A stretch of 63,889 bases of DNA, filler included, from Kipferlia bialata (lineage: Eukaryota), in the NCBI GenBank assembly GCA_003568945.1. It is 6 parts of 6 records of this genome, joined end to end, with 100 filler letters (N's around TTAATTAATTAA, not from the genome) between each part and the next. Parts side by side here need not be neighbours in the genome. Positions count along the whole stretch, not along the records: positions 14,032 to 27,959 come from BDIP01000882.1; 5 more parts are not named here. One strand, given 5' to 3'. The translations under genes were made by a program, and so were the position numbers. Below the pieces are notes generated by a model. The model was not told the origin of the DNA. It searched no databases and saw only the letters and a program-made list of their open reading frames with translations. Every line of letters starts with the position of its first letter. Positions within the stretch are counted from its first letter, which is position 1. Shown one piece after another: positions 421 through 45,210 of this stretch.

Positions 421-1732
421 GCCCCAACCCCTGAGCAGATCTGTGATACCTGTCAGTTCGAGGCTGAGATGGTGCAGGTATCTCTATATATACTATACAT
501 GAAAATATATATATTGTAAGAATGTACATATGTAAACATATAAAAAGTAAAGAATGACCATCTGTGACACCTGCCAGTTCGAGTGCAGGTATATAGAAAT
601 ACATGTATATTAACTATATCTACAGTATGTATCTCTATATATGGGACTGACACCTGTCAGTTCGAGGCTCAGATTGTGCAGGTGAATTGAGAGTATACAT
701 ATAGAGAGTAGCATATTAACCCCCCCCTCTCTCTCTCTCTCATGTCCAAAGCCCCTTATTCCAGACATATCATCTCTGACACCGATCGTGATGTATATAT
801 ATCCCCTAAGCCCTCGTTATTATATATATATATATATATCCTTAGCCCTTACTCCAGATCATCATTGAGGCTGAACATGATATCTTTCTCTCTCTCTCTC
901 TCCCTCTAGCCCCTTACTCCGGATCATCATTGAGGCTGAGCCCGTTATATTATATAGTAATATATATATACTATAGTATATGTATATGTCTATATATCCC
1001 CTCACTCATTTACTATAATACATGTATATGTGTATCAAGCCCCTCACTCCAGATCATCATTGAGGCTGAGCCCGTTATATTATATAGTAATATGTATATA
1101 CTATAATATATGTCTATATTTATATATCCCTCACTCATTTACTATAACACATGTATATGTGTATCAAGCCCCTCACTCCAGATCATCATTGAGGCCGAGC
1201 CTGATATCTCTCTCTCTTTCTCCCTCTAGCCCCTTACTGTATGTATATTTATATATATCTAACCCCTCACTCCAGATCATCATTGAGGCCGAGCCTGATA
1301 TATATATATATATATCCTAAGCCATCGTCATTATATATAAATTTATCTAGCCCCTCACTCCAGATCATCATTGAGGCCGAGCCCGACATGTCTGCAGATG
1401 ACGTCAGGGCACTGCTCGAGGACGAGTGCTACAAGACTATGGATAACGTATGTACATGTATATATATAGTGCTACTTGGCCAGGTATATAATATATATAT
1501 TATTCCACGAGACAATGGAGGGATTCAAGTGGACAGACATATATACTCTAGATACAAGGTTGACATCTCTCCAATATACATGTGTCAACTGTGATACTTG
1601 CCTCACCGAGTCCTACACCCTTTCCTACACCCTAACTCTCTCTTCTGCTGCACCCTTATTCCCAGGACCTGGGTATCCAGTACTGCATCAACCTCTACGA
1701 CCAGATGGTGGATCTGGTGGAGCAGGGTATGG

Positions 1733-1772
<40 letters not shown>

Positions 1773-2466
1773 CCTCACGTTCTATCAATGACATCCCACT
1801 GCTCTCTCACCCCCAGGCTACACCACCGACATTGTCTGTGAGCTCATGGGAAAGTAAGTGGAACATGCAGTTTAGTGAATGTATATACATAGTGGGTGAT
1901 GGATCATGTATCCTATGATACTGACAGTGTCTGTGAGCTCATGGGAAAGTAAGTGCATCATACATTAATATATATGTGTGTGTATCTATATATATGTATA
2001 TTGATAATGGGAGGTGACTCACCGATACTATTAGACTGATACCGACATTGTCTGTGAGCTCAAGGGAAAGTAAGTGCATACTCAAACATATTATTTAGTG
2101 AATGCATATACACAGTGGGTGATGGATCATGTATACTATGATACAGACAGTGTCTGTGAGCTAAGCGGAGATTAAGAACATACATACACTCATATATGAG
2201 AGTGGTTCTCATGTAGTGAGGTATGTGTGGGTGTCATGTATATGCATCGGTATGAAACTGTATTGTTCTGGTGTCAGTGCATTGTATAGTTACGTGATCA
2301 CAACCTCTACAATCGCATTGTGCCCATTTCCATTTCTGTAACTCCATTGACACCACGTGTGCTGGGAGCCATTTTTAGTCATATATTTACATGAACAGAT
2401 TGACATTACTAGTACGATTGATACATAACGGGGTGTATGTGTGTTACTAACGCCAGGTGTGCTTAG
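421..2466 (+). CDS. Saposin-B (SAPLIP) domain protein, multi-exon, 5' part probably upstream or off the contig
   Basis: Exons 421-477, 1364-1447, 1666-1726, 1817-1853 and 2457-2466 splice in frame to APTPEQICDTCQFEAEMVQIIIEAEPDMSADDVRALLEDECYKTMDNDLGIQYCINLYDQMVDLVEQGYTTDIVCELMGKCA*. This has the six-Cys saposin pattern (CxxC...C...C...C-x5-C). Confidence 0.85.
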
Positions 2467-14031: not shown

Positions 14032-14084
14032 TCGCGACCCTCTGCTTATGAGACAAATGCTCTAACCAACTGAGCTACGGTGAC
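14032..14084 (-). tRNA. tRNA-Met (CAT), probably elongator; 3' end cut off by the contig edge
   Basis: The minus strand reads GTCACCGTAGCTCAGTTGGTTAGAGCA TTTGT CTCATAA GCAGA GGGTCGCGA. The D-arm/A-box and an anticodon stem-loop with CAT are present; the T-arm is lost in the gap. Confidence 0.85.
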
Positions 14085-15730
14085 GTTACGGCGGAATGAC
14101 ATGTATGATTACTGGACCGTTCGGTGACGAGTTGCCACGTGGAATATGTGAAAATACTAGATCACTGCACTTAGGTAGTGCAGTGACGACTTACGCAGCT
14201 GGAAATTCTATTGTATCAGGTACATTCTTTACAGAGCTACGGTGACGTGCTCTTAAGATGCACATATAGTACTGGACCATCACAACGCGCTAGAAATACA
14301 CAAGAGACAATGCAATGACCATCAGCGAAAGGCAGCTACTGAAGCAGCATGGGATTGTCTAACAATATATATGCCGAGCTACGATGACAATCTCTAAACG
14401 ACATGTAGGATAACTGGACCAATAACATCGTCATCGTCATCGTCATCGTCTGAGCTACGGTGACATTCGTCTGTCATGACATGTAGTATTATCATAATAC
14501 TGTGTTACTGGACACTGATAATCTCTGAAAACGGACTTCCAATCGTATACTGGCCCCATACTACACTAAAGAGAGTGTTACATTCAGAGTCATCACCAAA
14601 TGTGGTGTTCTTAGTACACATATGTACAAAGAACAATGTCACATTCTCAAGAGTAGATGCAACAGACGACTGTCAGCAGCAAAACTCATATTCAGTGGTG
14701 TATTCAGTGTCAGTATTCATATACTTCATATACAGTGTCTCAGGGTGACGTGTGACTGTCACGATGATTAGGACTGACTGTAGGTGATCACTGTCAAATT
14801 GTTCAATGATCCTCAACGTGAGGGCCTGAAGTGATATTGTGACAGTTAAAGTGTATACAGCTGACTATGTACAGGGGATCACCCTGTAGCGCAGTGTATG
14901 ATGAGAGAAATCTTCCAAGGCACATGTTGAGTGATTGATGTCCTCACTAGATGAATAGTATATGTTATATAAAAAGTATCAAAATAGATGGCCTCTCAGT
15001 CTCGAAGGCCGCCTGGTTCGCACTCCGCTCTTCGAGCTCATCGATGAGCTAGTATGGACTTGTCTGATGAATAGATTCCTATCGTCATCGTCATCGTCAT
15101 CGCCATATGTGTCTGAGCTACGGTGACGTGGTCCCATGCGGTATATGTGATAATACTAGGTCAACAGGCCTTGCAACGTTGTCGTGTTTCTTCCAGGAGA
15201 TACATGCAGTGGCACAAGCCAAAACAATACGGTAAAACTTCACAAGAGACAAGGCATTGAACTTCATGAGGCAGCTACTGAAGCTGCATGTACTTGCCTG
15301 ACCAATAGATATACATATCGTCATCTTCATCGCCATCGCCATATATGTACCTGAGCTACAGTGACATGGGGGCAGCGTGATATGTAGTAGTACCGAACCA
15401 ACACAGTAACCAGAGCATGATAGAGCATGGAGGTAAACGGTGATATGCCGCATATCAGATATGCGGGTGCCACCACATATAGTACTACTGGTACTGGTAC
15501 TGATACTGGACCTTAATTTACAGGCGTGGAGCTGTCAATGTACCATATGATGTACCCAGAGGGCCAGTGGATCCAAATCCAGAGCCTTTTGGGCCAGAGG
15601 TAAAACTACACCCGAGACAGGGCAATGAACATCAGGAGAAGACAGCTACTGAAGCAGCATAACTTGACTGACCAATTAGTATACCTGTTGTCATTGTCAC
15701 CATATGTGTCTGAGCTACGTTGACGTGTTT
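14085..15730. repeat. Degenerate repeat region upstream of tRNA-Met containing copies of the tRNA 5' end
   Basis: (t)gagctacggtgac-like copies start at 14234, 14376, 14451, 15114, 15352 and 15711. A second module gagaca..gcaatga..cagctactgaagc.gcat occurs at about 14304, 15245 and 15614. Confidence 0.8.
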
Positions 15731-16404: not shown

Positions 16405-19400
16405 CTAGTCGTCAGCCACCACCACCGGGATTGCTCTAACTGTGCTGCCAACAGGACTTGAGCTATCCCACATGTTGAGCTTGAAGATCAGTGGCTTAGT
16501 CGGTTGGCAAGCGTAGTAGCCGGGCTCTCCTTCGAGGATTCCATAGTCAAAGCTGAGCTGACCGTAGACATCAACCCACCAGGTAGCAGAGGAGTCAGTA
16601 TCGACAGTGTAGATACCCGGCCCGGAGATCCACTCGAGCTGCTCCTTCTCGCCAGAGATTGACTGCCATGTACATGACGTATCAGAAGCACCGTAGCAGC
16701 ACATGATCTCAGCCTCCAGCCCCATAGAGGTGACGCCATCGATACCCTCGTCTGCATACTCCCTTACTACACGAAGCAGAGGGTCAGTATCGTCTGTGGT
16801 CCAGGTGTCTCTACCCACAGTGGCAGAGGTGTAGCCGGGGAGGAACATGGAGGACACACTGTGTGCCTTGAGGGTACCCACATCAATCATGCTGTTACCA
16901 GCAATATCTCCAACCTCAAGGGTCATCTTGTTGAGTCCCGAACAGACAGAGTCCTTGGTGAGGGTGGCAACTGTCTCAGTCGTCTGTCCATCAACAAAGT
17001 ATGCAACAGCTAGGTCAAGACTCTCAGCTGAAGAAGCAACTGTACCATAGACAGAGAGTGTACCGGTGATTGTGACACTGGTGCTAGTAAGGGTGATATC
17101 TCCACTAGCGGACTCGAGAGTGAGTCCGCTGGCAGCAGAGAGCTTCAGGTAGTCTGCACTGTAAACGGACCAGTTCTGTGTTCTACCGTCATCAAACCTC
17201 TGGATCATCAGCGTGCTACTACTGGTGTTGTCCTTGACAAAGACTCCATCAGTAGTCAGTGACATATCATAGGTGGCACCGGTAAGTGTCAGAGTGTCAC
17301 TCGACGATACTACTGAGTCAGTGAACAGTCCAGCAGAAGTGAAACCAGCGGCAAGGTTGACGGGGCTGTTGAAGGTGATTTCGGTGAAGTCACCACTGAC
17401 CGGCAGACTGACACTGGACGTGCTCATGTTACTGACCTCCATAGTCATGGTTGTGATGCCACCGTCGGCCTGGAGGGGCAGGTCGGTGTAGATGTAGCCA
17501 CTGGAGAAGGCCATGTCGCATCCACTAGTCTGACCGTCCAAGCATATTGAGGGCGTTATGCCACCTTCTGCATATATGTTCTGCGCCTCTAGCTTGCCTG
17601 TCACAGACAATGCAGAGTCGATTGTGACATACTCTGCAGAGAGTCGGAGACCAGCAGCTACGCTATTGATATCAGTGGCCATCAACATAACGTCTATGCC
17701 AGTTGCAGATTCACTTGGCATCTCAAGGACACTGAGCTTGGCAGAGTTCGCGGTGAGTGAGAGAGAGCTTGATGTAAGAGAGAGCGACTGCCCCTTAAGA
17801 GACAGACTACTCTCAGCCTCAAGCTCGATACTCATACCAGTGACGTGTGTCGTGCCGCCAGAGGTGAGCCAGGTATCCTGACTCATACTGCCGAGGCCCA
17901 AGACTTCATAGGAAGTCACGTTCCAGGAATTGGCTGTCGTGTCCTCTAGGACTCTCAAGGCACTGCTTCCACCATGTGACAGATAGAACTCAGATGCCAC
18001 AACAGCACCGAGGTAGTACCCTCCAACCACCATAGAACCGGTGGCTAGCTCAATATCACCGGTCACAACGAGGTCACCACCAACAGAAACCTCCCCAGAG
18101 GTAAACAAGACGTCGCCACTAACACTCAACGGCGCCTCAGACACTGATGACAGGACATCTACCTGGAGTGTCTGTGCCTCCAGCAGGTTGTCAATCTTCA
18201 GATTGCCAATGTTGACAGCCGTGGTGTTAAGAGACATCACTGATGTGCCACCGGTGACAGAGAGGTCAAGAACACCCGTGGCTGCAGTGCCAGTAATGGT
18301 ATCCGTGTAGAGACTGGTAGCGTGGAGATCTGAGGCTACTGTTACGTTCAGAGAGCTGACGTAGAGACTCCGGTCATCGGCAATGTTGAGATAGGCCTCA
18401 GTCTCTCTCTGAGACTCCAGAGCCACTGTGACATTCCCACCTGCACCACCAGCAGTGAATGTAAGGGGGTAGTTGTCCGAGAAGAGGACACCTCCAGCGA
18501 GAGTGATGTCTCCCCCAAAGCGGGTGTTGTCAGCGACAGCAATCTCTTCGTTAGCAGCTATGGTGACGACGTCTCCAGCTAGGGAGATAGTGGAAGCAGA
18601 GGTCACATAAATGTCACTGGAGGAGGAGAGTCCAGAGGCGTTCACGTCCATCGTAGATCTTCCATCTGTGACAGACAGTGAATCAGCAGAGAGCTGCCCA
18701 CTGACAGCCACGTCACCTCCACACGAGAGAGACCCCTCAGTCGCACTCATGGAGTATCCAGATACATCCTCCACAGCCCTTGTCTCAATGACATCACCAC
18801 CGAACCTGAGTACAATAGTATCCAAATAGATATCCTCAACCTCAGCCTCTAGTGCAGAGAGGTATGGTACATCGATATCACTAGAGACAGTAAGGGATCC
18901 CTGGATCTCCACACTGTCCTCAGCAGCAGAGAGGAGGGGAACATACACCTCCTCGACTTCAACCTTAGTAGACATGTCAAGGCCCTTCTCAAGCACTGCG
19001 GGCTCCTCCTCTTCTTTTTCAACCAGCACCCACCCCACACTGAGTGTAGAGGTGTTGAGATCGCCATTAACATCGACTGTAGAATGCTCCACATTGAGGA
19101 GAGGCACCTCAGAGAGAAGGTCTGTAGTGTCAATGGGGATACCGGCACCGGCAGAGAGAGTGCTACTATGGAGCAGAGACGCAACCTCTACATCCCCAGA
19201 CACAACAACAGCTGTGTCGTTCAGAGACATCATAGGAGTCCGGTCCTCTGCACTCAGCGAGAAGTCAAGGCTCCTGGCACCATCGGTCCCATAGATACTC
19301 GTCATAAGAGCGTCGGTCTCCACAACAAAGTACTCATCTGCAGAGACAGTCACGTTCTCAGCAGTGAAGGACATGTTGCTATCGGCATTGAGGGAGAGGT

Positions 19401-22400
19401 CGAAATCAGCAGAAACTATGAGATCGATGGATGAGTAGACCTCCCATGCCTCTGGGTTGCGATACACATCCAGGTACTCACTACTCTCCTCCAACCATAA
19501 GGCTGCTGTGTAGATCTCATTGGCGGCGAAGTCACCATCACACACGATAGCCCCATTAGCAGCCGCAAGAGGTATTGTGTCTTCCTCCTCCTCACCCTCC
19601 GCCTTGGCAGTGAGTCTCTCTCCAGAAGAGGTGTCTCTGAAGCTGACAGAGTCAACAACAGTGACACCAGCAGAGAGTGTGCCGTTGATCTCCACAGTCT
19701 CGTCCTGTGCCACAAGAAGAGGCACATACTCTGCCTCAGTAACCTCCTCTACCTTAGTAACACTGAGGACCTCCAACTCCAGACCACCGTCACCCTCTTC
19801 AGAATCAGTCTCCTCGGTAGCTATCTGTACCCAACCCACGTTGAAGCTGGTGGCATTGAGGCACCCATTGACAATAACAGTGTCATCCAGTGCACTGAGA
19901 AGGGGGGTCACCTCTACACCCTCACCCTCAGTCACTGATGGTATCTCAGCGCTCTCAGTAATGGCCACGCCATAACCGACAGAGAGGCTCTCCACATAGA
20001 GCTCACTCTCAAACACTGCGTCACCCTCAACGACAAAGCTATCATCCGCAGATACAGTCACGTTCTCACCCGTGAGGTAGAGTACACTGTCAGAGGTTAT
20101 CTCGAGGTCTAAGGAAGACTCAAGGTACCACTGAGCCCTACCCATGTAGAGGTCGAGGTAGTCTCCATCCTCACCAGACTCCAGTGAGATCTCGTTAGAG
20201 TAGACTGTTCCGTCTACGAGGAAGTCCCCATCACAGGAGAGAGTACCATCGTCAGCATACAAAGTGGCGACTACTGGTAGCTCCTCTCCACCCTCAGCCT
20301 TAGCGCTGATGTCTTCAGAGTCCCCAGAGTACATGAAGCTGACAGAGTAGAGGTAGGTGTCCTCAGCGTAGAGAGAGCCATTGACTGACACTGTATCATC
20401 CAGAGCGGACAGGAGAGGTACATACTCGTACTGGCTGGTCTCAGTCTCTCCCTTAGTGGAGGCGAGTACAGGGGCAACCTCCGCACCCTCCACCTGCACA
20501 TACCCCACATTGAATGCTGTGGTGTTGAGACACCCGTTGACTACGACAGTGTCCTCCAATGCACTTAACAGAGGGACAGAGGTGGTCTCTAGGTCCTTTG
20601 TCACGGCAAAGACCTCAAGCATCTCATCATCTCCAGATGGAATCGGGTCTACCCCAATACCCACAGAGAGGCTGTCCATCTCTACTGATGTCGGGACATA
20701 CAGGTGGTCTGCATAGAGTTCTAACATGCTACCCTCACTGGCTGCGAGGGAAAGTGTGTCCAGACCAGATCCCTCCTCGGATGCACTTACAGAGAGAGAG
20801 AGAGAGCCTGTCACTGAGGAAAGGTCTGTGTCAATCTCGAGTACAAGTGGCTGCTCAGAGGAGTGGATCCTGCTGGTGGCCACTTCCCCTTCGACACTGG
20901 CACTACCCGTTACAGTGACCCCTCCAGAAACATCAAGACTGTCTCCAGTGAGAGAGAGATTGGGAGTCCTCTCAGAGTAGCCGTTAGTGATGGCGAATCC
21001 ATCCATAACCTCTAGTGAAGAGGCCTCAAGTGTGATATGTCCTAAGGTGCTACTGGCTAGGGTGGTGATCTCTAGACGACCCATCGAGGAGTCGGGGAGA
21101 GAGAGCAATGGCTGGTCAGTGTTGATGCTGCCATTGATTGTGAGGTCACCAGAGATGTCTAGGGTCTCCATAGAGACAGGACCAGACATTGAGATGCCAC
21201 GGTCACTGACATCGAGAACACCATCTCTCACCTGGAGTGTCTGTGCTGCCAGGTCAGCCTCTACTGTCAGAGAACCCTCAACCTCTACATCATCAGCAAA
21301 GCTCACTGAGTAGCCCACACTGCCAATAGAAACTTCAGAGGCGGACTGTCCGATCAGGATACTGCCACTGGCGTCGAGTGTAAGGTCAGTAGTAGACTGG
21401 ATGGTATCGCAAACAACATTTGACGAGAACACAGTCTCATCAGCGGTGACAGCAATGGAGCCGTCCTGAATCACCACTGAGGTAGTCCCACTGGTAAGTG
21501 ACACAGTATCTGCACTGATATTCGCAACAGTCAGCTCTGTGGCAGATAGAGTGCCACCGGAGATGGTCATATCAGTTGTGGTTATGCCATCTGGTACATT
21601 CAGGGAACCAAGTATGTCAACACTCTCTGGAGACAGTGAAAGAGACACTGACTCAACGGCGAGAGAGATCAACGCCTCAGATGCAATGGCAACACCGGCA
21701 GTGGAGATCTCAACAGTGTGAGCTGAGGGAGTGGATCCACCCTCTACAACTCTGGGGTCACTGACCCCACTGACTCCAAGGGTAAGACCATCTGCCTCTG
21801 TGCCTAGGATAGTCACAGCTGTCACCTCCCCCAGCACTTCCAGCGTGTTGGATACTAGCGTGTGACCAGCACTGTGTGACAAGGACACAACCTGAGCGTT
21901 GGATCCAACAGTCACATCTCCGTTGAATCCAGTAGCTCCCTGTCCGGCATCTAGAACAAGATCTCCACCCCTGGTACTGTCACTAGCACCACCGACCACG
22001 GTCACAGTACCACCTGCGACACCGGTACCGGCAGAGCCAGCGATGGTGATATCAGTCTGGCTGGAAGAGGATGCAGCAACAGAGAGAGTCACGGGGGTGC
22101 CCTCAGTACCAATGACCAGGTTCTGGAGCAGGTGAGTATTGCCATGGGCAATCAACAGCCCCTGGCTACTGGGGTTGATCTCCACAGCTCCCTGGGAGTC
22201 ACCTGCCGCCCGCCCGCTGTCCTCAACACCAGAGAGAGTGAGAGACCCAGGGGTATCAGAGGACCCCATAGCAGAGGCAGCACTGGCCCTAGTGATAGAG
22301 TAAGTATCAGTGGCTGTTGTGGCATCGCCAAGCACAAGGTTGGCGCCAGCGTGGGTCAGAGACGAGGCCTCGAAGGTAGTGGGGCCAGTCACAGAGACAC

Positions 22401-25400
22401 TGTTGGAGAGCAGGGAGAGGTTGTTGGACACGCCTCCAATGCTCACACTAGAGGTGGTACCAGTACCAATGTAGAGTGCAGAGCCACTGGAATCCAGAGA
22501 GAGAGCGGTGTTGGCAGTGTCAATGGAAGTGCCCACCACTAGAGGCACATTGATGGTAGCACTGCCATTGAGCAGCTCAAAGCTACCACTACCGGCCTGC
22601 AGAGTAGCGTAGTGGCCGGCAGCATCTGTATCTCCCATGGAGAGAGAGACAGTGGCGAGGGTCTGCAGTGGGGACAGCGTGTACTCGCCAGAGGTGTGGG
22701 AGAGAGACCCTGCTGCAAAGACGAACCCGTCTGAGCTGGGACCCTCGGGGTAGAGGCCGAGGGTAGGAGAGAGGGTGGAACTCGTTATGGCAGCTGCATC
22801 GGTACTATCTCCAAAGTACATGGCACCATTCGATGAGAATAGTCCATCAGAAGAGGTCAGAGAGCCCACAGTGGAGGCACCAGAGACAGAGAGAGAGCTG
22901 GGGTCAACGGGATACTAGGTAGACAGTATATATATCAGTATAGGGTGAATAGTACTGACCTCACTGTAACGGAGTCCATGACAAACTCCCCAACTGAGAG
23001 TGCACCAGTCACAGACAGATCTCCAGAGACAGAGGCATCTCCACCTGTGGTTGGTGATAGTGATTATATATATATATATATATATATAGTAACGCCTTCT
23101 TCGTTTCACCAATGAGTATATGCAATAAGTACGTTGAGGCATCTCCACCTGTGGTTAGTGAAAGTGTATGATAATACCACCCGACATATATAAGAGTGCA
23201 CTGCCATCTATATAGAGAATATGAGGCAGAGGCATCTCCACCTGTGATTAGTGGACTAAACTTCTATCTGAAAACGAAGCAATGGCTGTGATTCACTCGA
23301 CCACAGAATATGCTACCATTGAAATAGATTGGTAGTAGTATACGAGGAAGAGAGAGAGAGAGAGAGAGAAAGAGAGTACCTACTAGCAGGTCCCCATCTA
23401 ACGAGGAGTCACCACCCACAGAGAGAGAGGAAGGAACACTCTTGGACCTGAGATATTAGAAAACTACGCGCTTTCAGGATGAAGCTACACGATATCAAAA
23501 CAAAGAACAACATATCCTTCACGATGAGTAACTATACCTTGTCTGAGAGGGTGTGCCTATCTGGACAGACTGGCCAGAGGGGGCAAGGGTTACAGGGCCA
23601 CCTAGAATGAGACGGAACTATTAGTACCAGATATATGTCTGGTAAAGATACCATAGACATTTTCAATTATAGGTAGAGAATGTGTACCTAATGGGTCCAG
23701 TGTGATTCCGTTATATGCCTCTAGTACATCACGTAGGTATCAATATGCAATCATGCTAAGTTGATAATCGATACCTAGTGGATCCAGTGGGATTCCGTTG
23801 TCTGCCTCCAGTCCCTATCTATATCTATCAACATATACATACATGTATATACTCAAGAGTCGAGTAAGGATATACTAACCTAGTGGATCCAGTGTGATTC
23901 CGTTGTCTGCCTCCAGTGTGAGGTCCCCCTGTGCCTGGTTGGTGATGGTCGCAGCTGGGACAAATGTGCCTAATGGTGAGATACTAGTGGTGGTAGCAGA
24001 GAGAGCGTCAAGCAGTTAGAACACACAGTTTCGTCAAATATCACATGTCTCATCGTTTGACCCTATACGTATATATAGTGTGAATTCCTGATGACATGTG
24101 TATAGATGGCACCTGACTCATCATTGGACCCCATCTGGATGGTGCAGTGGTCATCACCATCTAGCCTGGTGTTATATGTATATAATCACTTCCTAATGGG
24201 TATATAATACTATAATAGATTATATATTGTACATTCACCTAATGTATGGTATGTTCCTTGTGTTGACAATCTCCAGAGAGGCACTGGGTATCTAGTGTAT
24301 GTATAGTATAATTCTATTAGGATTAGTATATATAGTGTGTATACCTGATGTGTGGCATGTCCCTTGTCTTGACAATCTCTAGGGAGGCACTGGGCAGAGG
24401 GGTGCCGATACCCACACACTCAGAGTCTGAAGGGTAAATATGTATAAACTACCTATGTGGATATAGGAAGAGAGATAGGGAGAGAGGGCCGATACCCACA
24501 CACTCAGAGTCTCGGCATAAGTATGTATACACTTATTACATAAGCTTAGCTAGGAGAGAGAGAAAGAAAGGGAGGGAGAGAGAGAGAGATGAAACCCACA
24601 TACTCAGAGTCTGGGCATTTGGTATGAAAACACATTCAATTCTCTATATGAGCGGTAATTATATGGAGAGGGGAATATGAACCATAATTATATAGAGAGG
24701 GGAATATGCCGGACGGGCATTGTCAGTTATATACCCGGGTGACATACTGACAATGAATACCGGTATAAAAAAGATAGTATACCTGGTATGACAGTGAGTG
24801 TTTGTTCACCTCTCCTGAAACACATAGAGAAGGACGTATAGAGTATATATTCTATATATAAATATATATATACCTGGAATGACTGTCAATGTCTGCAATC
24901 TCCACTGCCGCACTGTCATCACTGACAGCCAGAGTATATAGAATACGTATATACATATACATTAGTATATATACTATATTATATACTTATATACCTGGTA
25001 TGACCGTTAATGTCTGTGCAATCTCCACTGCCGCACTGTCATCACTGACAGCAAGGGTGTAATATACACATATATTTATATTAGTATATATACTATATTA
25101 TTTACTTATATACCTGGAATGACTGTCAATGTCTGTGCAATCTCCACTGCCGCACTGTCATCACTGACAGCCAGGGTGTAATATATACTCATATATACAC
25201 GTAAGTATATGTACAACAGTAAACTTATAGAAATATATACCTGGAATGACAGTGAGTGTCTGTGCAATCTCCACTGCCGCACTGTCATCACTGACATCCA
25301 GAGTATATATAATACATATATATACATTAGTATATATACTATATTATATACTTATATACCTGGAACAACCGTTAATGTCTGTGCAACCTCCACTGCCGCA

Positions 25401-26783
25401 CTGTCATCACTGACATCCAGTATTTTGAATACATATATATATACACTAATGTATTAGTATATATATATTGTATATATATATATACCTGGTATGACAGTGA
25501 GTGTCTGTGCAATCTCCACTGCAGCACTGTCATCACTGACAGCAAGGGTGGCCAGGACAGACGACATGGACAGAACTGCAACAGCCCCTGGTATTAGACA
25601 AATCCAAAAATAGATACACATATATATTATCATATATACTGAGACAGCAAGGGTGGACAGAAGAGACGACATGGACAGCACCGCAACTGCGCCTAGTGTA
25701 AGAGTCCGAACATACATATATATATATACTGATACTGCCACTGTACCTAGGCCAATTGAGACCACGAGCAGCACCAGTACAACTGCCAGGGTGACACACA
25801 TGCACTGCGATGTCTTGCTAGAGACATGTGAAGTGTTAGTAGGAGTGTAGGATGTGGTCTGCTTGGTGGTCTCTGGGTACTCGGGAAGAGGGGCAGCCAC
25901 ATAGACCTATTATGAGTTAGAATAGAGACTATATGAAGATAGGACGAGTCATAGTATATATATACATAGACAGTATACATATCACATACAAACCTGAGAA
26001 GGAATTAGAGATACCAGAGGCACTGTAGTGACTGGGGGCTGGGGAGGCATAGATCCAACATAGTATATATCTACCTATCTATCTATCTATCTATATATAT
26101 AGGTATGTGTGTGTATATAAATCTACCTGTGGCACTGTAGTGACTGGGGGCAGGGTGGCTGGGGAGGGCATGGGTCTGGGTCTGGACCCCTTGGCCTTGG
26201 ATCCTTGCAGTGAGTACACATCTATTCTATACAAACATATATACGTATATATATAGACATACATATACATTGGAGAACATGGACCCCTTGGCCTTGCTAC
26301 CTTGCAGTGAGTGTACACTGAATAATACACCAGGGTATATGCATATATACACACTCATATACATACATATCCTTAGGGTATGGGTCTGGGATTCTGTACA
26401 CACATATATATACCCTTCTTTCTGGCCATCGGCATGAAAATTGTAAATACTCTCAAATAGTAACGACACAATGGTATTTATGTATAAATATAAATATATA
26501 TATATATATATCCATACCCTTCTTTCTGGCCATCGGCATGGGCAGTGATGAATTCCTACAAACAATACAACTGATCACTCTTTTAGTTATACGAATAGTT
26601 ATAGCTCTAGTTCTCACCCTTCTTTCTGGCCATCGGCATCGGCCTTGGAAACAATATGAAAATAATAGACTTGCATATGAGTACAGTATCAGCATCATAT
26701 AGTACATACCCTTCTTCCTGGCCATGGGCATTGGCATGGGCATTGGGAGTGGAGATGATGCCGCTGAGAGAGGGGCCTATACC

Positions 26784-26814
<31 letters not shown>

Positions 26815-27690
26815 TAGTATGTATGATCCTTATTAATCTCACCCTTCTTCCTAGTCATCGGCATTGGCATTGGAAGTGGAGATGATGCAGCTGAGAGAGG
26901 GGCCATTGGAAGAGCACGACCAACACTAGGGGTCAGTCAAGGTAGAGAGACTCTGAGAGTGTATACACTATAGTATATATATATATATATATATATATGC
27001 ATAACATTGGAAGAGAATTATAGATTATAGAAAACAGTCCAATACTATGGGGAGAGAGTGCTTCTGCCCATAGTAACTACATATCTAATATCTTCATTAT
27101 CTACACATAGACTCTAACCTGGGTGACGCTCTGTTGTTTCCTCTCCCCACACTGGGTGAGTCTCACACTCTTCAATAGAAATATTGTTCATATAGTATAA
27201 AGTATAGTATAAATAGTATTCATATATTGTATGTATATATATACATGTACTCCTGACTGTTTTGAGTATATTCCTACCTGGGTGAAGCCCTTTCCCGTCT
27301 CTAGTGAGACTCATAGTATATATAGTACACACATTTCTATACACACACACATATATATATAGATACCAACCTGGGTGAAGCTCTGCTGTTCCCCCTGCCC
27401 ACACTGGGTGAGGCTCTGTTGTATGGTACTGTGGTGACAACAGCTCTCCTATTGTAAGAGTGGATGTACCTATATATATATGGGTGGGGATACAAAATAT
27501 TTCCATTACCATTAATGACAGGTATATTTATATATATACCTAGTCTGCACAGGTGGCAGGGGACTAGACACAGGCAAGGCCACGGGCTTAGGCATAGGAA
27601 GGGGGAAGGGCATGTTGCCACTTTTGCCCTTCTTGGCACTCTGCTTCTGCACTATCTGGCTTTGGATAGTGAAGACATCATCCCTGAAGT
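16405..27690 (-). CDS. Giant (>2,400 aa) type II membrane protein with a beta-strand-rich, acidic, tail-fibre-like ectodomain; 5' end probably incomplete
   Basis: The terminal exon of about 6.5 kb (ORF 16405-22869, acceptor near 22898) is S/T/G/V/D/E-rich with repeats. Small upstream exons encode a Pro/Lys-rich N-terminus (PLPMPMPMTRKKG), one hydrophobic segment (CVTLAVVLVLLVVSIGLGAVAVL, about 25550-25800) and the motif VGIGTPLPSASLEIV. Confidence 0.8.
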
Positions 27691-27915
27691 GAGCTGCGTA
27701 TTTACATTTGCATGTAATAACTACTGTGATTTAACAATCTGACTCTACTAGTAGAGAGTAAGACATCATCTGTGGAGTGAGGTACGAATGAATTATTCCT
27801 TACATGTATATAACTGGGAGCGATGCCTGTTCAAAGAGATAGGGATACAGTATCAGTATCAGTGAGAGAGTCGTTCCAACTCCTGTTTAATGGGTATGGA
27901 GATGGAGAGAGAGAT

Positions 27916-28565: not shown

Positions 28566-30365
28566 TTACTGCTGTGGGATGGGCTCAGTCTCAGCCTCTG
28601 CCTCTGCCTCTATCTCTGCCTCCTCCCCCCTCTGTGCCTGCAGTCTCTCCCTCTCGTCCCCAGGCAGCAGGGCCCAGATGGCATCGGGGATGGACGGGCG
28701 CTCCTTGGTGCCCTGGGGTCAGAGAGGAGGCAGAGGAGACACTATGCACACACACGTGAGATCAATACCAATGCATCTCTGCCATACCTCAGCATACACA
28801 TTCTCCCAGAAGAGCGACAGCTTGTCCAGCTCTGCCGCCTCAAAGGCTAGGATGGAGTCGCTGGTATAAGGGACAGGTAGGTATACACATGCACCTATCC
28901 TCATATCACTCTATACACAACACCCATACCGAGTCTGGCTGTACCAGCTGTCTGCCCAGCAGTACAGCTTGGCGTGGTATGTGACGAAGTTGTTGAACAT
29001 GGCCTTCTGGACACTGTTCTTGGCAACCCTGAGGATAAGGGTGAATAGATATAATATACATGAGCATGTATAGACACTGACACTGATACTGTTCTTGGCA
29101 ACTCTGGCGGTGAGAGGATGGGTATATATATATATATCATGAGTGACTATGTCGTATATATGCATGTCCCCTCACCTTCCGAGCCCCATGACCTTGAGCT
29201 CAAACTTGACCAGCTTGTACACAGTCACGCAGGGGGTGCAGGTGGACTGGGGTGGGGGGTGACTGAGAACTATGAGGATATGAATATGGCCATAGTATCT
29301 ACTCACCTCCCACCCCTTAGTGCTGACTGGCACTCTCTGGGCAAGCTCAGGGGTGGTGAAGGTCTGCCTGAGGTAAGGGTAACGAGGAGAGAATAATAAT
29401 AATACTATGAACCTGGTACTGGGTGATGGAACAATCCCAATACGAGTATCTACACCGATAGGAAACATCACTCAACTAATCGAACGAAACAGAGATAATG
29501 ACACCACGTACTTGCTGGGGTCTATGTCGTCCCCGTGGTGGGATGCGATGTCGACAGTGTATCTCTGCACAGTGGCTAGCTCGGCCTGGGGGTCAGGGGG
29601 AGATGCGTGTAGGAAATGATACATACATATTACATATAGTGACATGCCTCTGACAGGTTGAATGGGTTTGCCGTGTCTCTGTCCTGGCCCCTGTCCCCGT
29701 CTATCAGTCTGGTGTGCAGCTCAAAGGTCAGCTTCGACTTGAGGAAGGGGGAGCTCAGCTTGTTCACTGGGGTGAGGGGGAGGAAAGTGCACCACTAGAA
29801 TATGTAATGTATATACTTCCTCCGTACCGACGTGTGTGGATGCGTTGATGCAGAACTCGTTGACGAACCTGGCCCTGGCTGGCATGATCTTGGTCACCTT
29901 GCCTAGGGTGAGGGAGAGAGGCTAGATGGGAGTGGGGGTCACTTTAGATAGTGTACAGAGTAACATGTGAATGCACTGACTCACCCTTGGGCAGGTGGAT
30001 CCTCTTGAATGTAAGCCGGGCATCCCTGTCCTCGTGTCTGATGCCAACCTGGGGGAGGGGCGGGGGAGAGAGTATGCATAGAAGAGTGTGGGGTTAAGGG
30101 GTTGGGGGGAGGGGGGCTATTCAGAGCGTCATTAGCTGGTATGAATTGACCGTTCTCCCCTCTTTTGCAATCAATCCAGTATACACAAGCATATAGAGTG
30201 CACTAGGCATACACATGTAGCTAACTGACTCACATTGACTATGGGCTCGATCCCCTCTGCACTGGTGCTGTCCTCAAGGGAGGCCCTGGCCACCATGTAG
30301 TGGTGCCCCCTGTCGGTCTCAGCAGCGGTCAGGGGGAGCGTGATGGCATACTGGAACAGATACAT
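28566..30365 (-). CDS. Phosphatidylinositol transfer protein (IP_trans/PITP family), multi-exon
   Basis: The N-terminus MYLFQYAITLPLTAAETDRGHHYMVARASLEDSTSAEGIEPIVN matches the PITP pattern EYRI.LP....EY.....YMVA..S.E....GEGVE. Later exons read TVYKLVKFELKVMGLG and NNFVTYHAKLYCWADSWY (cf. F..FHRQ.FCW.D.WY). Confidence 0.85.
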
Positions 30366-39480: not shown

Positions 39481-41860
39481 ACTGTAACACCACTGCCCTG
39501 ACCTGGCTGTCGTAGTCTAGCTGCATCTGCACGGCGGCCAGGAAGTCATCTGGCTTGCCTATGTCCTTCCACATCCCTGGGGTGATGATATGGTATGGTA
39601 TGGTATGATATGATGATGATATGATGATGATGGTATGATATGATGATGATGGTATGATGATTGTATGATAAGGATATGGTATGGTATGATGATTATGGTA
39701 TGATATGATGATGATATGATGATGGTATGATATGATGATGGTATGGAGGGGACACGCACAGGGTATGTGTAGTGTATACACGTGACACTCCTACCTCTGG
39801 CACGTGGAGATATACCAAACCAGTATCAGTATCCAGTGAAGATAGGCATAGCACTCAGTAGGAATAGCCCTATATAAGAGATTATCAGACACTGAGTGTA
39901 TGTGCAACAAGCCCCCCCACCCCCACCCCTACCTGTGTGCTATATATATATATACCTGTGTGCTGGTAGCAGTACATCTCCCCCTTGGCAGCCACCCTTG
40001 GGAATATCTCTCTCTCCATGCTGGTGGGCTTGAGCTGGGGTGGGGGACGGGTACTTGTATACACATACAGGGAGTTGAGGTCCCACCTTGCCCATGTCCA
40101 TACTTGTACATGTGTACATCCGCATATAGTATAGGTATGTATATAATGATACCTTAACCATATCCAGCACTGACGGCTCTATGATGTACACACCCCCATT
40201 GATGAGGTTGCCAACATACGTCTGGGGCTTCTCGACAAACCTAGGGGGTAGGAACATACCAACACAACCAACAACAATCATGATAGCAGATACACACTCT
40301 GCCAGCAGAAGCACAAAAGTAGTGGAACTACTCAGTATACAAATACACTTCTCTATTAATACTATTGACATGCAATACAGGGGGTTGAGGGGACCTAGAG
40401 ACTGTCTTGTTCTGCTCAGAGGGTATACATACATACATATATACACATCCATATATACCTAGACACTGCGTTGTCCTCGTCACACACTATGACGCCAAAG
40501 CGGGACGGGTCTTCGACACTGGTGCCCATGATTGATATCATACCTGGGGGGGGAGGACACACATACACGACAGGGAGGTACATGTGTATACATATACATG
40601 TACATATATATAAATGAGAGAGACACGGAGGGCCCCGGCTGTCCTCACCTCCCTTGTCCCTGTGGAACTGGATCATGGCCTCGAGGGGGTAGTCGCAGAT
40701 GACATCGCTGGGGTCAGGGGTGCATGTAGTATGGGGCATATGATATATATATATATATGATATATGATATATATATATATGAATGGACATGGGAATATGG
40801 GATACAGGCTGTATATGATATGATTCAGGTATAGGACATGGGACATGGCATCAAGACGACCAGAGTGACAATCCACATCCATGCACCCTTGGCCCCATCA
40901 ATCTCAGAATCAATCTCAGAATCAATCTCAGAATCAATCTCAGAATCAATCTCAGAATACATCCCTGTACCTGTCTCAATACATGTCTCAATATATACCA
41001 CCACACCTGTTGCACACAAAGAATGGCTCTGCCTCGGCCCCGTTCTCCGGCATCAGGAGGGGTCTGGCCAGGGCTAGGGGGCCTCCTAGGGATTGGGAGT
41101 ATGGGGAGAGAGTCCAAAGAGGATCAGAGGGGAGAGAGGGATAAAGAGAGAGAGAGAGAGTCAGCAGACGGTGTGGATAGCACCCAATGGCACAGTGACA
41201 CTTTGTCTGAATATATATAAATATACACACATGATCTGTATATACATATATATATATATATATATGCATACATACCTGTCCCTAGAGGCTTTGGCTCGAT
41301 AGAGGACACAATCTTGACATTGTACTGGTCCTCCCACTTGCTGACATACCCTGCCGTAAGTACCCTGACATACAGTATCACAAGACAATGGGTGATTAGG
41401 CAGTGATTATAATATATACATGTATATATAGAGAGAGAGACAGATGATAAGGCGTGTTGAGTATCGTACACACGAGTGAGTGATATACAACAGTGAGGTG
41501 GGATATATGGACCGAAACATAACCAAGTGCCCCTGTCACTGTCACCCACATAGAGACATAGAGACATAGATAGGATACGCAGAATGAGGGACCGATGGTC
41601 ACACTCACCCTGCAGGGTCTGGGGGCAGTAGGACACGGCCAGGATGATGTCGGTCACACCCACACCGGCCAGGGCAGCTATCTGGAGCTGGGGTGGGTAA
41701 CGGGGGGGGCAGCATGGGTCCACTCAATCATAGTATAGTCATATACATACGATATAGCATAAAGTGTATACTGTATAGTATGCATACTGATACCTCAATC
41801 ATGGGTGTGTTGCAAAACTCAATGAGGGGCTTGGGGACAGTGATGGTCAGGGGGCGTAAC
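37640..41860 (-). CDS. GMPPB: Mannose-1-phosphate guanylyltransferase (GDP-mannose pyrophosphorylase); first exon(s) missing at the contig edge
   Basis: Exons read RLRPLTITVPKPLIEFCNTPMI, DIILAVSY, EPKPLGT/GGPLALA, EPFFVCNSDVICDYPL, VEDPSRFGVIV, RFVEKPQTYVGNLINGGVY, TSMEREIFP and GMWKDIGKPDDFL. The hexapeptide tail ends ...VLPHKALKESIWEAQIVM*. Confidence 0.93.
39580..39745. repeat. Intronic (GAT/GGTAT/ATG) compound microsatellite
   Basis: Visible run of gatgat/ggtatg units inside a GMPPB intron. Confidence 0.85.
40897..40958. repeat. Intronic 12-bp minisatellite (atcaatctcaga)x5
   Basis: Perfect tandem copies in a GMPPB intron. Confidence 0.9.
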
Positions 41861-42217
41861 CTGAGGTCATAGAAGTGGAGAGGCCTGGGTCTGGGTATAC
41901 ATCTATATACACCCATACACATATATACCGATACAATGAGGAGAGCAACGGGGGGGGGGGGGGGGAAATTCATAAAATTTGTTTTTTNNNNNNNNNNNNN
42001 NNNNNNNNNNNNNNNNNNNNNNNNNNNNNNNTTAATTAATTAANNNNNNNNNNNNNNNNNNNNNNNNNNNNNNNNNNNNNNNNNNNNTGACTGACAGTCT
42101 CTCTCTCTCTCTCTCTGTCTCTCTCCCCCCCCTCTCTTACCCAGACACCGACTCCCTGTCTGACAGTCTCTCTCTCTCTCTCTCTCTCTGTCTCTTTTTC
42201 TGCCCTCTCTTACCCAG

Positions 42218-42771
42218 ACACCGACTCCCTGTCTGGCACCACCGACAGTGCCGCAGCAGCCACAGCCATATCGACAGGGCAGAGGGTGCAGAACGGGAGG
42301 TTGGTATATACTATATCCCCTCCAGTTCATGTCTTCCCCAATTGTGTCTGCTCTATGTACATTGCAAAGTGTGTCTATCAAGTGTCTGACTCCTGTCTCT
42401 GATACTGGACTCTGACCCTTCAGACTGAACTCCTCTGTGCAGTACCCCCAGGACTATGAGACACTGTTGCAGTACTTGACAGACACAGAGGGGGGGAGGT
42501 ATATATGTATAGAGAGAGCGTATATATAGTACATAAAGGGAGAGACTATTACAGTACCTGACAGACACAGAGGGGGGGAGGTATATATACATATGTAGTG
42601 TAGTATAATACTTCACATATATGATCAGAATGGTTGAAAGAGAGATACTTTTACAGTACCTGACAGACACAGAGGGGGGGGATCAGGTGAGTTTATGTAC
42701 TGACCCCAACTTGGTAGTTACTTACTGGCAGAGACTACCTCACCGGTGTTATCTCCAAGACAGACGTCATC

Positions 42772-42821
<50 letters not shown>

Positions 42822-45210
42822 CCATCTCACTCCCAGAGACTACCTCACCGGCGTCATCTCCAAGACCACCCTGTACCATGCCACCCCAGCTGGGTTCATC
42901 GCACACGAGGCGTCCAGAGGGAGCTATGCAGACATAGGTGAGACCATACTATTGGTAGATGCTCTCCAATACTCTAACCCAGCCTCTGACATCATCGAGT
43001 CCCAGCCTGACCTACTCATGGGTGGGGGCAGTGAGTATCTGTCGAGTCTGCTGGGGACAGCGGCACAGCCCAGTACGGACAGGTGGGTGGATAGCTCCTG
43101 AGTAGAGTAGAGAGTAGAGAGAGAGTATAGTGTTGATCATCTATACTCATACGCAAGGTCGTCGCTTCCAGGCCTGACCACGTCTCTCCCTGTCGTGGGT
43201 CTGTACTCCAGTGGGTACATGCATCAGGTAGGGGGTATCATGAAGACACACAGTGTGCAAGCCTCGTAGCGTCAGTGATTCACTGACATACGCTTCAAGA
43301 GAAACCCTTGTCATCTTCCTCACCACCAGGTTGTGCAGCGTGATCCAGACGCATCAGAGACACAACCTACATTGCCTGAGATGGCATCTGCCGCACTGGC
43401 TGTGATGCAGGTATGTAGATTATATACCACAGTACTGTGTTGTGTCTAGTTCTCTGGCAGTGTTGGAGGAATGCAAGGGATGGACGAAGTGACTGTGCCT
43501 GTCTTGGAGTGTTATGGGTGCCCACCTCAGGCTGCTTCCGCTGAGCAGGGTAGGCCCTTCGCCCTAGTGATAGAGGCCTCATTCCCAGACCATGGTACGA
43601 TGAATCATCATTGATGATACGTCATTCAGTATTGGACTCCATACAAGAGTGTCATCACACTATGCATAGTGTCCTCCCACACCAGGTAGCCATGCCAACA
43701 ATGCCAATGTTGCCATGACAGAGGTATGAGTGATGAGATACCCCCAGATAGCCACTCACTCTCTACTATAACTGACAACAGGTCATTGAGCTCCACGAAG
43801 CAGTGCGGGACACCCTTGACGCCATAGACCTGTCCAACACCCTTCTGTTAGTGACAGCGGACCACGAGACAGGTGACTTCATTAGTATCTCGCACAGTAG
43901 TCCCTGGCGATCTATTAACCTATGATTGCATACTCTGACCACTAGGCAAGCTCGACCTTAACGCCACTGAGGTAGCCGAGGCACTCGCTGCCTGTGGTGT
44001 GTCTGCCCCAGCTGCCACTGGATACAGAGACATAGACACAGTGGCACAGGCCAGGCAGGACAGGTGGGGGTATGATGCCACCAGTTTAGGGATACTCTAC
44101 CGATACCTCTCTGACCCTAGAATCGATGCGTTAGGTAGCTCCTACTCCTGGGGCAGTGGGGGACATACGTCAAGGTATCAGAAGTGTCATTGCTGAGAGC
44201 TGTGTAGCGTATCACTACAACTGGATGAGGAGAGAGCGTGGGGCATACACCCACTAACCCAGGCATGTCCTTCTGGCTGGCAGTGGTCCAGGATCAGATG
44301 CCATAGGGGGACTCAACGGGTGGCTGGGGTCGCACAAAGGTATGATTGAATTGTCTTATACCGATTTTGACCAAGCAAGTGTGTGTGTATAGGCAGGGGG
44401 TCTGTATCCACTCTCAGAGTGGACCACTCTGGTTATGTGTCTAACCCAGGAACCGCCCAGATTCTAAGGAGTGTTGCTGGTGATGGCTGGACAGTGTCTG
44501 CTGACTATGGTAGTCCCTCTGTCCACTCAGTCTTTGAGGACGGATACACATGCGCCTGTAGCATAGGGGAGATTATCGAGGAGGACTGCTCCTGCGATGT
44601 ATATGGGGAGAGGGTGTACTACCTGTCACCAGTGGATGAGTTCGGAACACCCCTGACCTCTGAGCCCATGGGTACGTGGTATGCATGCCCCACCACCCAG
44701 AGTCCAGTGGCGTGCACCAACAGGATACACTGGAGTGATGAGTCAGCCACATATGCCCTCACCCTGGAGACACAGGAGCTGCGTAGGGTGTGTGCAGATA
44801 CCAACGGTGCCACTCCATGCAACATATCTGTGACGCTCTACCCAGACAGTGTGTCTACAGTTGGGGCATTCACCCTTACTATACCGGCCGCGTGCACTCA
44901 CATTGAGAGCCCTCCAATGCTGGTGCCTCTAGTCTTGGCTACTGCGGTCATTACAGTACTCATAGTGGGAGGCATTGCAGTCTGTGTACGCTCTGCATAC
45001 CCAAAGAAGGTCACGGTCCTCGCTACAGGGTTAGAGAAGGCTAACGGGATACCTGAGGAGGGAGGCACGCAGGAGTCTTGCGTCGCTGCAGTTAAGCAGG
45101 TATCCATTCCAAGAGAGGTCAGAGATGCGAGTTCATTGGGAGAGGGTGACGATGATGTGTGTATCGAGATGACCAGTGGTTCTGGTAACGGAGGAGTGCT
45201 CAAAGCATAA
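42218..45210 (+). CDS. Alkaline phosphatase with a Cys-containing C-terminal extension and a single TM helix; 5' end off the contig
   Basis: Motifs TDSAAAATAISTGQRVQNG (catalytic Ser), YHATPAGFIAH..SR, DLLMGGG, PTLPEM, VIEASFPDHGSHAN, TLLLVTADHETG and GGHTS. The last exon has the TM segment LVPLVLATAVITVLIVGGIAVCV. Confidence 0.9.

Follow-up and report, generated by a model that had tools for sequence, protein, structure and literature searches.

Skipped copies of exon junctions in introns of Kipferlia bialata and an AG/GT motif that is likely a by-product of one of them

In the potato RdRp gene, a tandem duplication across an intron-exon boundary is described to have created an intron (PMC4974935). 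Internal gene duplication, as treated by Gao and Lynch in 2009 and cited in that paper, belongs with the intron gains by duplication of an AGGT-containing exon segment. Intronic acceptor-donor signals are known in another setting, the ratchet points of recursive splicing, which are described as conserved, located mostly in long introns, equipped with a competent donor and associated with a cryptic RS-exon (PMC8605326). Kipferlia bialata is an intron-rich free-living fornicate for which 124,912 GT-AG introns have been reported (PMC5874029), and it is reported to retain 87 of 174 spliceosomal proteins, while no snRNA candidates were detected (PMC6679479).

The window analysed here is a stretch of 63,889 nucleotides of the K. 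bialata genome, joined from six records, and all positions count along it. We mapped the public KIPB_004215 protein to exons on its minus strand. The long open reading frame at 16405-22914 matches K. bialata KIPB_004215 with 100% identity, no Pfam family scored above cut-off in this protein, and over the examined junction the public protein reads ...MTRKK-GSKAKGSRPRPMPSP.... In the text below, an exon or splice site in use is called live, and a copy of an exon edge that lies in the adjoining intron is called an echo. A slash marks the junction (AG/GT). The features of the locus are the following.

16405..27613, minus strand: gene KIPB_004215, placed by mapping the public protein; 2502-aa hypothetical protein encoded by 12 short exons and then one 6.5-kb exon
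26843..26925, minus strand: upstream live exon, (S)VGRALPMAPLSAASSPLPMPMPMTRKK(G), whose donor is the used donor (RNA and public protein)
26204..26842, minus strand: 639-nt GT-AG intron with four donor echoes and one acceptor echo (RNA junction)
26710..26777, minus strand: donor echo 1 of the upstream exon 26843..26925, GT intact
26618..26650, minus strand: donor echo 2 of the upstream exon, GT intact
26518..26547, minus strand: donor echo 3 of the upstream exon, GT intact
26414..26446, minus strand: donor echo 4 of the upstream exon, GT intact
26375..26399, minus strand: perhaps an older fragment from inside the same live exon (score 29, below threshold and uncounted)
26280..26312, minus strand: acceptor echo, 12 intron bases including AG 26302-26301 plus 21 exon-derived bases (alignment; skipped in the main mRNA)
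26297..26299, minus strand: three adjacent differences between echo and live copy (Gly GGA/GGT; Ser TCC/AGC), of which 26299 creates the GT
26222..26279, minus strand: 58-nt TA-rich spacer from echo to live acceptor; A+T 76%, against 34% in the live exon
26127..26203, minus strand: live exon of KIPB_004215, (G)SKAKGSRPRPMPSPATLPPVTTVPQ (public protein and RNA record 13)
26019..26043, minus strand: donor echo of the live exon 26127..26203, in the next intron (alignment)

On the minus strand, the live acceptor has its AG at 26205-26204 and the exon from 26203 reads GA TCC AAG GCC AAG GGG TCC. The echo has its AG at 26302-26301, and the exon-like bases 26300-26280 read GT AGC AAG GCC AAG GGG TCC. 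The 12 intron bases before the junction show no difference between the two copies, and the intron flank of the echo outscores every foreign flank. The echo is a direct copy of intron and exon bases (12 + 21) beside its source. The original prediction had placed it, with these letters, 100 nt upstream of the live acceptor; the letters and the order held, while the offset is actually 97 nt. Once the G of the upstream exon is added, both copies encode G-S-K-A-K-G-S, and the prediction was right that three adjacent substitutions (26299-26297) leave this peptide unchanged. Splicing at the echo would add 97 nt and run into a stop. Given this, and since just 21 of the 77 exon bases are present, a mutually exclusive duplicated exon was rejected. 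In addition, a further RNA contig matches 33 bases of the live exon head (26171-26203), up to the first base of the exon, and differs on both flanks; the SKAKGSRPRP motif of this other transcript is either paralogous or due to chance.

The contigs of run X2 were taken as RNA by guess, and the guess was borne out by their GT-AG joints; at a depth of only 3-5, and because contigs lose rare forms, they report the main product, and minor use of echo sites is still possible. RNA record 13 covers 26125-26204 and then continues with letters of the plus strand of the window at 26844-26873. Therefore, the main mRNA joins the donor at 26842 to the acceptor at 26204, skipping all four donor echoes and the acceptor echo of the 639-nt intron. 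The acceptor presumed live is thus used in the RNA contig as well as in the public protein, and the echo is passed over in the main RNA, as had been proposed. Elsewhere, the joint 23599/23878 skips two donor echoes, the joint 24164/24344 skips one, and the joint 25586/25746 skips an acceptor echo with AG/GC (25692). The outermost sites, namely the first donor and the last acceptor, were used in all four RNA-bridged introns that carry echoes. In the RNA a single intron is removed across the echo, and no new intron is spliced between the copies, as intron gain would require. Non-canonical GT..GG introns that would turn echoes into real exons were rejected on the RNA joints, which are GT-AG and skip the echoes, and coding on the plus strand was ruled out by these joints and by the minus-strand mapping of the public protein. 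DNA records 4 and 8 span several echoes together with their live exons, without differences from the window. The echoes are therefore physical rather than assembly doubles, and two haplotypes doubled in the assembly are ruled out for the echoes that these two records span.

Further observations concern the host gene and its neighbours. The N-terminus of the KIPB_004215 protein contains RASPSVGR twice, an exonised repeat. At 27672-27789 (minus strand), the frame of the gene is still open 5' of the annotated Met and contains an extra acceptor, with an acceptor echo 88 nt from it; the public model may be missing 5' exons. Within the long exon, an RNA contig of depth 92 matches 22500-22762, likely also leftwards, and then continues into unrelated sequence, and the DNA depth there is 852, compared with 440-490 in the vicinity. 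Part of this exon is likely shared with a second locus of higher coverage. Elsewhere in the window we take the gene at 28567-30361 (minus strand) to be PITP-like, that at 39800-41900 (minus strand) to be mannose-1-phosphate guanylyltransferase-like and that at 421-1857 (plus strand) to be saposin-like. The neighbour gene at 42218-44174 (plus strand) encodes an alkaline phosphatase (PF00245). Local alignment found echoes in the alkaline phosphatase, PITP-like and saposin-like genes as well.

For the census of echoes, a codon-blind repeat search was combined with local alignment of 28 hand-set exons, picked partly for showing repeats, to their flanking introns. The search gave 46 echo alignments, of which 43 were kept at a score of at least 32 and three (<32) were dropped; among foreign introns used as control, 4 of 1196 reached a score of 30 and none of 1196 reached 34 or more. 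The score of the acceptor echo at 26280..26312 never occurred in these controls, which makes this copy more than a chance match. The intron set comprised 65 hand-modelled GT-AG introns from eight genes, after three of 68 had been dropped for mis-set borders; exon chains that lost frame were set aside, which concerned gene K entirely and genes B and E in part. The acceptor echo at 26280..26312 is one of the 43 copies spanning an exon edge in the window. Their polarity is strict: all 17 upstream echoes touch the 5' edge of their exon, 25 of the 26 downstream echoes touch the 3' edge, and contact with the opposite edge occurs in none of the 43. At 2-10 nt from the junction, identity on the intron side was 0.72 at acceptors (control 0.46) and 0.53 at donors (control 0.31); it fell to background by 20-40 nt, with homology extending 10-20 nt into the intron. 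The echo's own flank outscored 90% of foreign flanks for only 9 of 25 donor and 9 of 17 acceptor echoes. This edge-touching polarity, together with the short intron homology, is the mark left by tandem duplication across a junction.

Echoes were present in 16 of the 65 introns, a share likely inflated by the choice of genes. These introns have a median length of 249 nt, compared with 83 nt, and contain 5.5 copies of TATATA per 100 nt, compared with 1.25 (P 1e-6). The decoy sites are generally intact, with AG in 16 of 17 acceptor echoes and GT in 20 of 22 donor echoes, and the echo scored at least as high as the live site for 15 of 22 donors and 6 of 17 acceptors. Most acceptor echoes (14/17) are out of frame or contain stops; the three that are in frame and open have offsets of 105, 75 and 105 and mostly synonymous changes. 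Two further features of KIPB_004215 are used below.

25643..25692, minus strand: acceptor echo of a later exon, AG/GC; passed over in RNA; differs by 4 synonymous and 2 replacement changes
24783..25420, minus strand: six donor echoes of a single exon, forming an array in which three synonymous Leu-Thr codon pairs recur

Several single cases were also noted. At 846-1447 (plus strand), five successive acceptor echoes precede one exon, four of them with AG/AT and with scores equal to or near that of the live site; this series is the strongest test case for outermost-site choice. At 1817-2175 (plus strand), three echoes repeat the end of a last exon including its stop codon, which indicates that the duplication process is not limited to splice sites. 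The intron 25746-25588 (159 nt, within 25454-25906, minus strand) is open in frame throughout, and its acceptor echo lies 105 nt upstream, in frame; retention or use of the echo would therefore add a hydrophobic stretch after an apparent membrane segment. By eye, the start of this intron resembles the head of the next exon (GTVAV vs GAVAV). At 14033-14079 (minus strand), a tRNA-like piece is truncated by the assembly gap (21 bits in Rfam, under the cut-off; ARAGORN found no tRNA), and a 14-mer from its 5' end occurs six times in 14033-15724, against 0.03 expected. These copies are either tRNA-edge echoes or decayed tRNA copies.

The exon parts of the echoes are about 90% alike to the live exons (151 differences in 1458 nt). 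Across the 43 echoes, 64 of 128 unique nucleotide differences fell in synonymous codon changes, compared with 37.7 under neutral change when the substitution types are kept (0 of 20000 draws). Part of this excess is trivial, because the live exon, held to synonymous changes by selection, contributes to the differences too. A two-branch null, in which only the live copy is constrained, predicts a synonymous share of 0.455. In its composition-conditioned form, which is conservative since it conditions on the observed spectrum, this null was not rejected for the 43 pooled echoes (0.50 vs 0.455, P 0.18) and gave P 0.046 for 25 independent echoes. In a two-branch codon simulation of these 25 echoes, which assumes uniform base mutability, 38 of 69 changed codons were synonymous against 25-26 simulated (P 0.002-0.004), and the two multi-hit synonymous codons had P 0.006. 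Among simulated echo sets, 0.2-0.4% contained a fully synonymous run of three and about 2% a serine family switch, neutral and two-branch alike, figures that are qualified by the triple change having been singled out afterwards as the most striking case. Together with the 64 of 128 differences, they uphold the original view that neutral decay is very unlikely to give three adjacent synonymous substitutions. Differences between sister echoes also favoured third positions (28 of 52 vs 19.1 expected, P 0.005; 19 of 37 vs 13.6 with the largest array excluded, P 0.03), and in the six-copy array at 24783-25420 the pairs CTC-ACT, TTA-ACG and TTG-ACA recur out of order. Judged from the sequence, the non-coding echoes likely diverged while coding, most simply as alleles that would have been joined by unequal exchange.

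Other origins were weighed against this reading. A tandem duplication on the same chromosome, after which the echo decays neutrally and the live exon takes only synonymous changes, requires neither alleles nor sex; the serine switch would then be a multi-nucleotide or two-step change of the live copy, or luck. The pooled analytic test (P 0.18) agrees with such a history, about 1.4 runs of at least three differences are expected among the echoes anyway, the changes that all sister echoes have in common are mostly synonymous, as expected for the live branch, and serial re-copying of a changing live exon could yield the third-position differences between sisters. However, the simulated 25-26 synonymous codons fall short of the observed 38, a fully synonymous triple and a serine switch appear in 0.4% and 2% of simulated sets, and in one array the recurrence of three Leu-Thr codon pairs does not follow age order, which makes this history rather unlikely. 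We regard as less probable still that both copies once coded on one chromosome, with the upstream head spliced as a small exon or alternative acceptor, diverging synonymously and then falling silent, a few perhaps being still in use. The geometry is that described for intron gain in potato (PMC4974935), three of the 17 acceptor echoes keep an open frame and carry mostly synonymous changes, and the RASPSVGR repeat has been exonised. Against it stand the added 97 nt and the stop met from the 26301 echo, the 14 of 17 acceptor echoes that are out of frame or carry stops, and the lack of an upstream acceptor at most donor echoes; whole-exon duplication with trimming should in addition leave halves of reversed polarity, of which the 43 echoes include none. 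An assembly or consensus error at the three differing bases could hide in 26212-26330, which neither run covers with a contig. It is nevertheless extremely improbable, since the flanking DNA contigs, at a depth of about 440-490, show no difference from the window and extend across other echoes, an error would be synonymous for only three of the 27 three-base blocks at 26297-26299, and the same bias runs through many echoes.

A further alternative concerns the AG/GT itself. The original prediction read the 26301 echo as a recursive (zero-length exon) site that lets the intron be removed in two steps, and the gained GT as a means of neutralising a decoy acceptor. The GT does follow directly on an intact acceptor (AG 26302-26301, GT 26300-26299), the juxtaposition that ratchet points have in their sequence, and the acceptor matches the live one in strength (2.7 vs 1.9 bits). 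The hexamer GTAGCA serves as a donor once among 65 live donors, recursion has been described in human introns shorter than 1 kb as a minor stochastic route (PMC10156609), and since the final mRNA would be identical, the RNA contigs are compatible with recursive use. However, the expected enrichment did not appear window-wide: of 17 acceptor echoes, 2 had AG/GT, which in one case came from a live AG/GT and in the other (the 26301 echo) was gained, compared with 13 of 65 live acceptors, and including a dropped echo with an inherited AG/GT would give 3 of 18. The donor regenerated at 26300 reaches 2.2 bits, below 63 of 65 live donors, although the real donor of this intron is weak too (4.4), and the 639-nt host intron falls short of the long introns that are typical, not absolute, for ratchet points. 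RNA-supported live acceptors with AG/GT (23601, 23447) begin normal exons, the serine switch is left unexplained, and the 15 echoes without GT require some other means of skipping; one of these, the AG/GC echo at 25692, is skipped just the same. Recursion at the 26301 echo is therefore very unlikely, though it may rarely occur, and the proposed role of the GT in neutralising decoys is not supported; given the counts and the generally intact decoys, a rescue based on GT is neither enriched nor needed. A single third-position glycine change turns AG/GA into AG/GT, and the motif at the 26301 echo is likely a coincidence, a by-product of this difference.

It is highly probable that the 26301 echo is a by-product of junction duplication. 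The full account, in which it is a skipped tandem junction copy, likely from a diverged working allele, with the GT as a likely by-product, has about an even chance in our judgement. It would connect the junction-spanning copy, the outermost sites in the main mRNA, the unenriched AG/GT and the synonymous-biased differences through allelic exchange, persistence through skipping and position-based skipping. Unequal exchange or template switching between homologues, misaligned by about 100 nt in introns rich in TA microsatellites, would set the exon head of allele A before the whole exon of allele B; equivalently, the live exon may later have been overwritten by allelic recombination. The silent differences, including the serine switch, would have arisen while both versions coded. 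Since the half-exons are mostly untranslatable, another allele is the simplest source. An allelic source also fits exon parts that are about 90% alike beside intron flanks that often cannot be aligned, and microsatellite slippage could do likewise. In minisatellites, inter-allelic transfer of repeats gives arrays that mix allele-specific units. Against the full account count the two echoes of gene C, with no synonymous and five replacement changes, the replacements in echoes, which are not clearly conservative (BLOSUM P 0.16), and the pooled P of 0.18. A mixture of allelic and neutral echoes might give over-dispersion among echoes; the codon simulation found none (P about 0.4), and this was also counted against the allelic account. 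The DNA run shows no alternative letters of a second allele where it covers 22500-26330. An allele or paralogue with GGT AGC was sought in JGI metagenomes, where the protein search gave 74 pattern matches, none confirmed, and the motif search none, and a protein search found no shorter homologue of KIPB_004215 residues 1-345; these blanks show only that no relative is among the sequences covered.

Junction copies would persist because they are skipped. The skipping most likely depends on position, given the A+T contrast of spacer and exon and the constant use of the outermost sites where RNA tells. A UA-rich spacer may mark everything between the outer sites as intron, or the shortest whole exon may be the unit defined; neither rule would act through damaged splice sites. 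In plants, splice sites are chosen at AU/GC boundaries, an AU-rich positional choice.

The lone AG/GT is the minor part of these results, and the pervasive, silently skipped echoes are the interesting one. They form a natural experiment on splice-site choice, in which splicing ignores decoys as strong as the real sites, some of them with 12-14 identical nt. Should the echoes stem from other alleles, a single assembly that looks haploid would preserve a record of earlier allelic diversity and recombination, and the growth of introns by junction duplication could be measured; introns would then record cryptic recombination or sex in a metamonad. Taken together as one general statement, that Kipferlia pervasively lengthens introns by tandem copying of exon edges with intact sites from diverged alleles, that these introns archive alleles, and that the reduced spliceosome follows an outermost-site rule, the idea is possible and somewhat doubtful.

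Within the literature searched, which consisted of titles and abstract openings and included few subscription papers, we came across no account of junction copies in Kipferlia that are pervasive and skipped; the main text of the genome paper does not contain 'duplicat', and its supplements may mention such repeats (PMC5874029). The serine TCN/AGY switch by two adjacent changes that keep serine, as in the echo, is described between functional orthologues (PMC6872785), whereas here one side is an intronic copy. Like ratchet points, the echo places an intronic AG before a GT and is absent from the mature mRNA, but the 639-nt intron and the unenriched AG/GT set it apart, as its weak donor may (PMC8605326, PMC10156609). 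Intron gain by a duplicated AGGT exon segment likewise makes exon sequence intronic through a local tandem duplication (PMC3265369, PMC2891723); in Kipferlia, by contrast, an existing intron is lengthened and none is new, and the non-coding copy has diverged like a coding one. The duplication of human FGG exon 8-intron 8 also copied an exon end and its donor in tandem into the intron; it is described to give aberrant transcripts and disease (PMC9052919), whereas introns in Kipferlia carry up to six intact donor copies each and the main mRNA is correct where RNA bridges them. As in potato RdRp, the duplicated unit is an intron tail plus an exon head carrying branch site and acceptor (PMC4974935). 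The upstream copy in potato is spliced in and delimits a new intron, while the copy in Kipferlia is skipped, and here the phenomenon extends to 16 of the 65 introns examined, with serial arrays and a mirror form on the donor side. Single junction duplications are thus known already; their pervasive and silently skipped occurrence in Kipferlia appears to be new.
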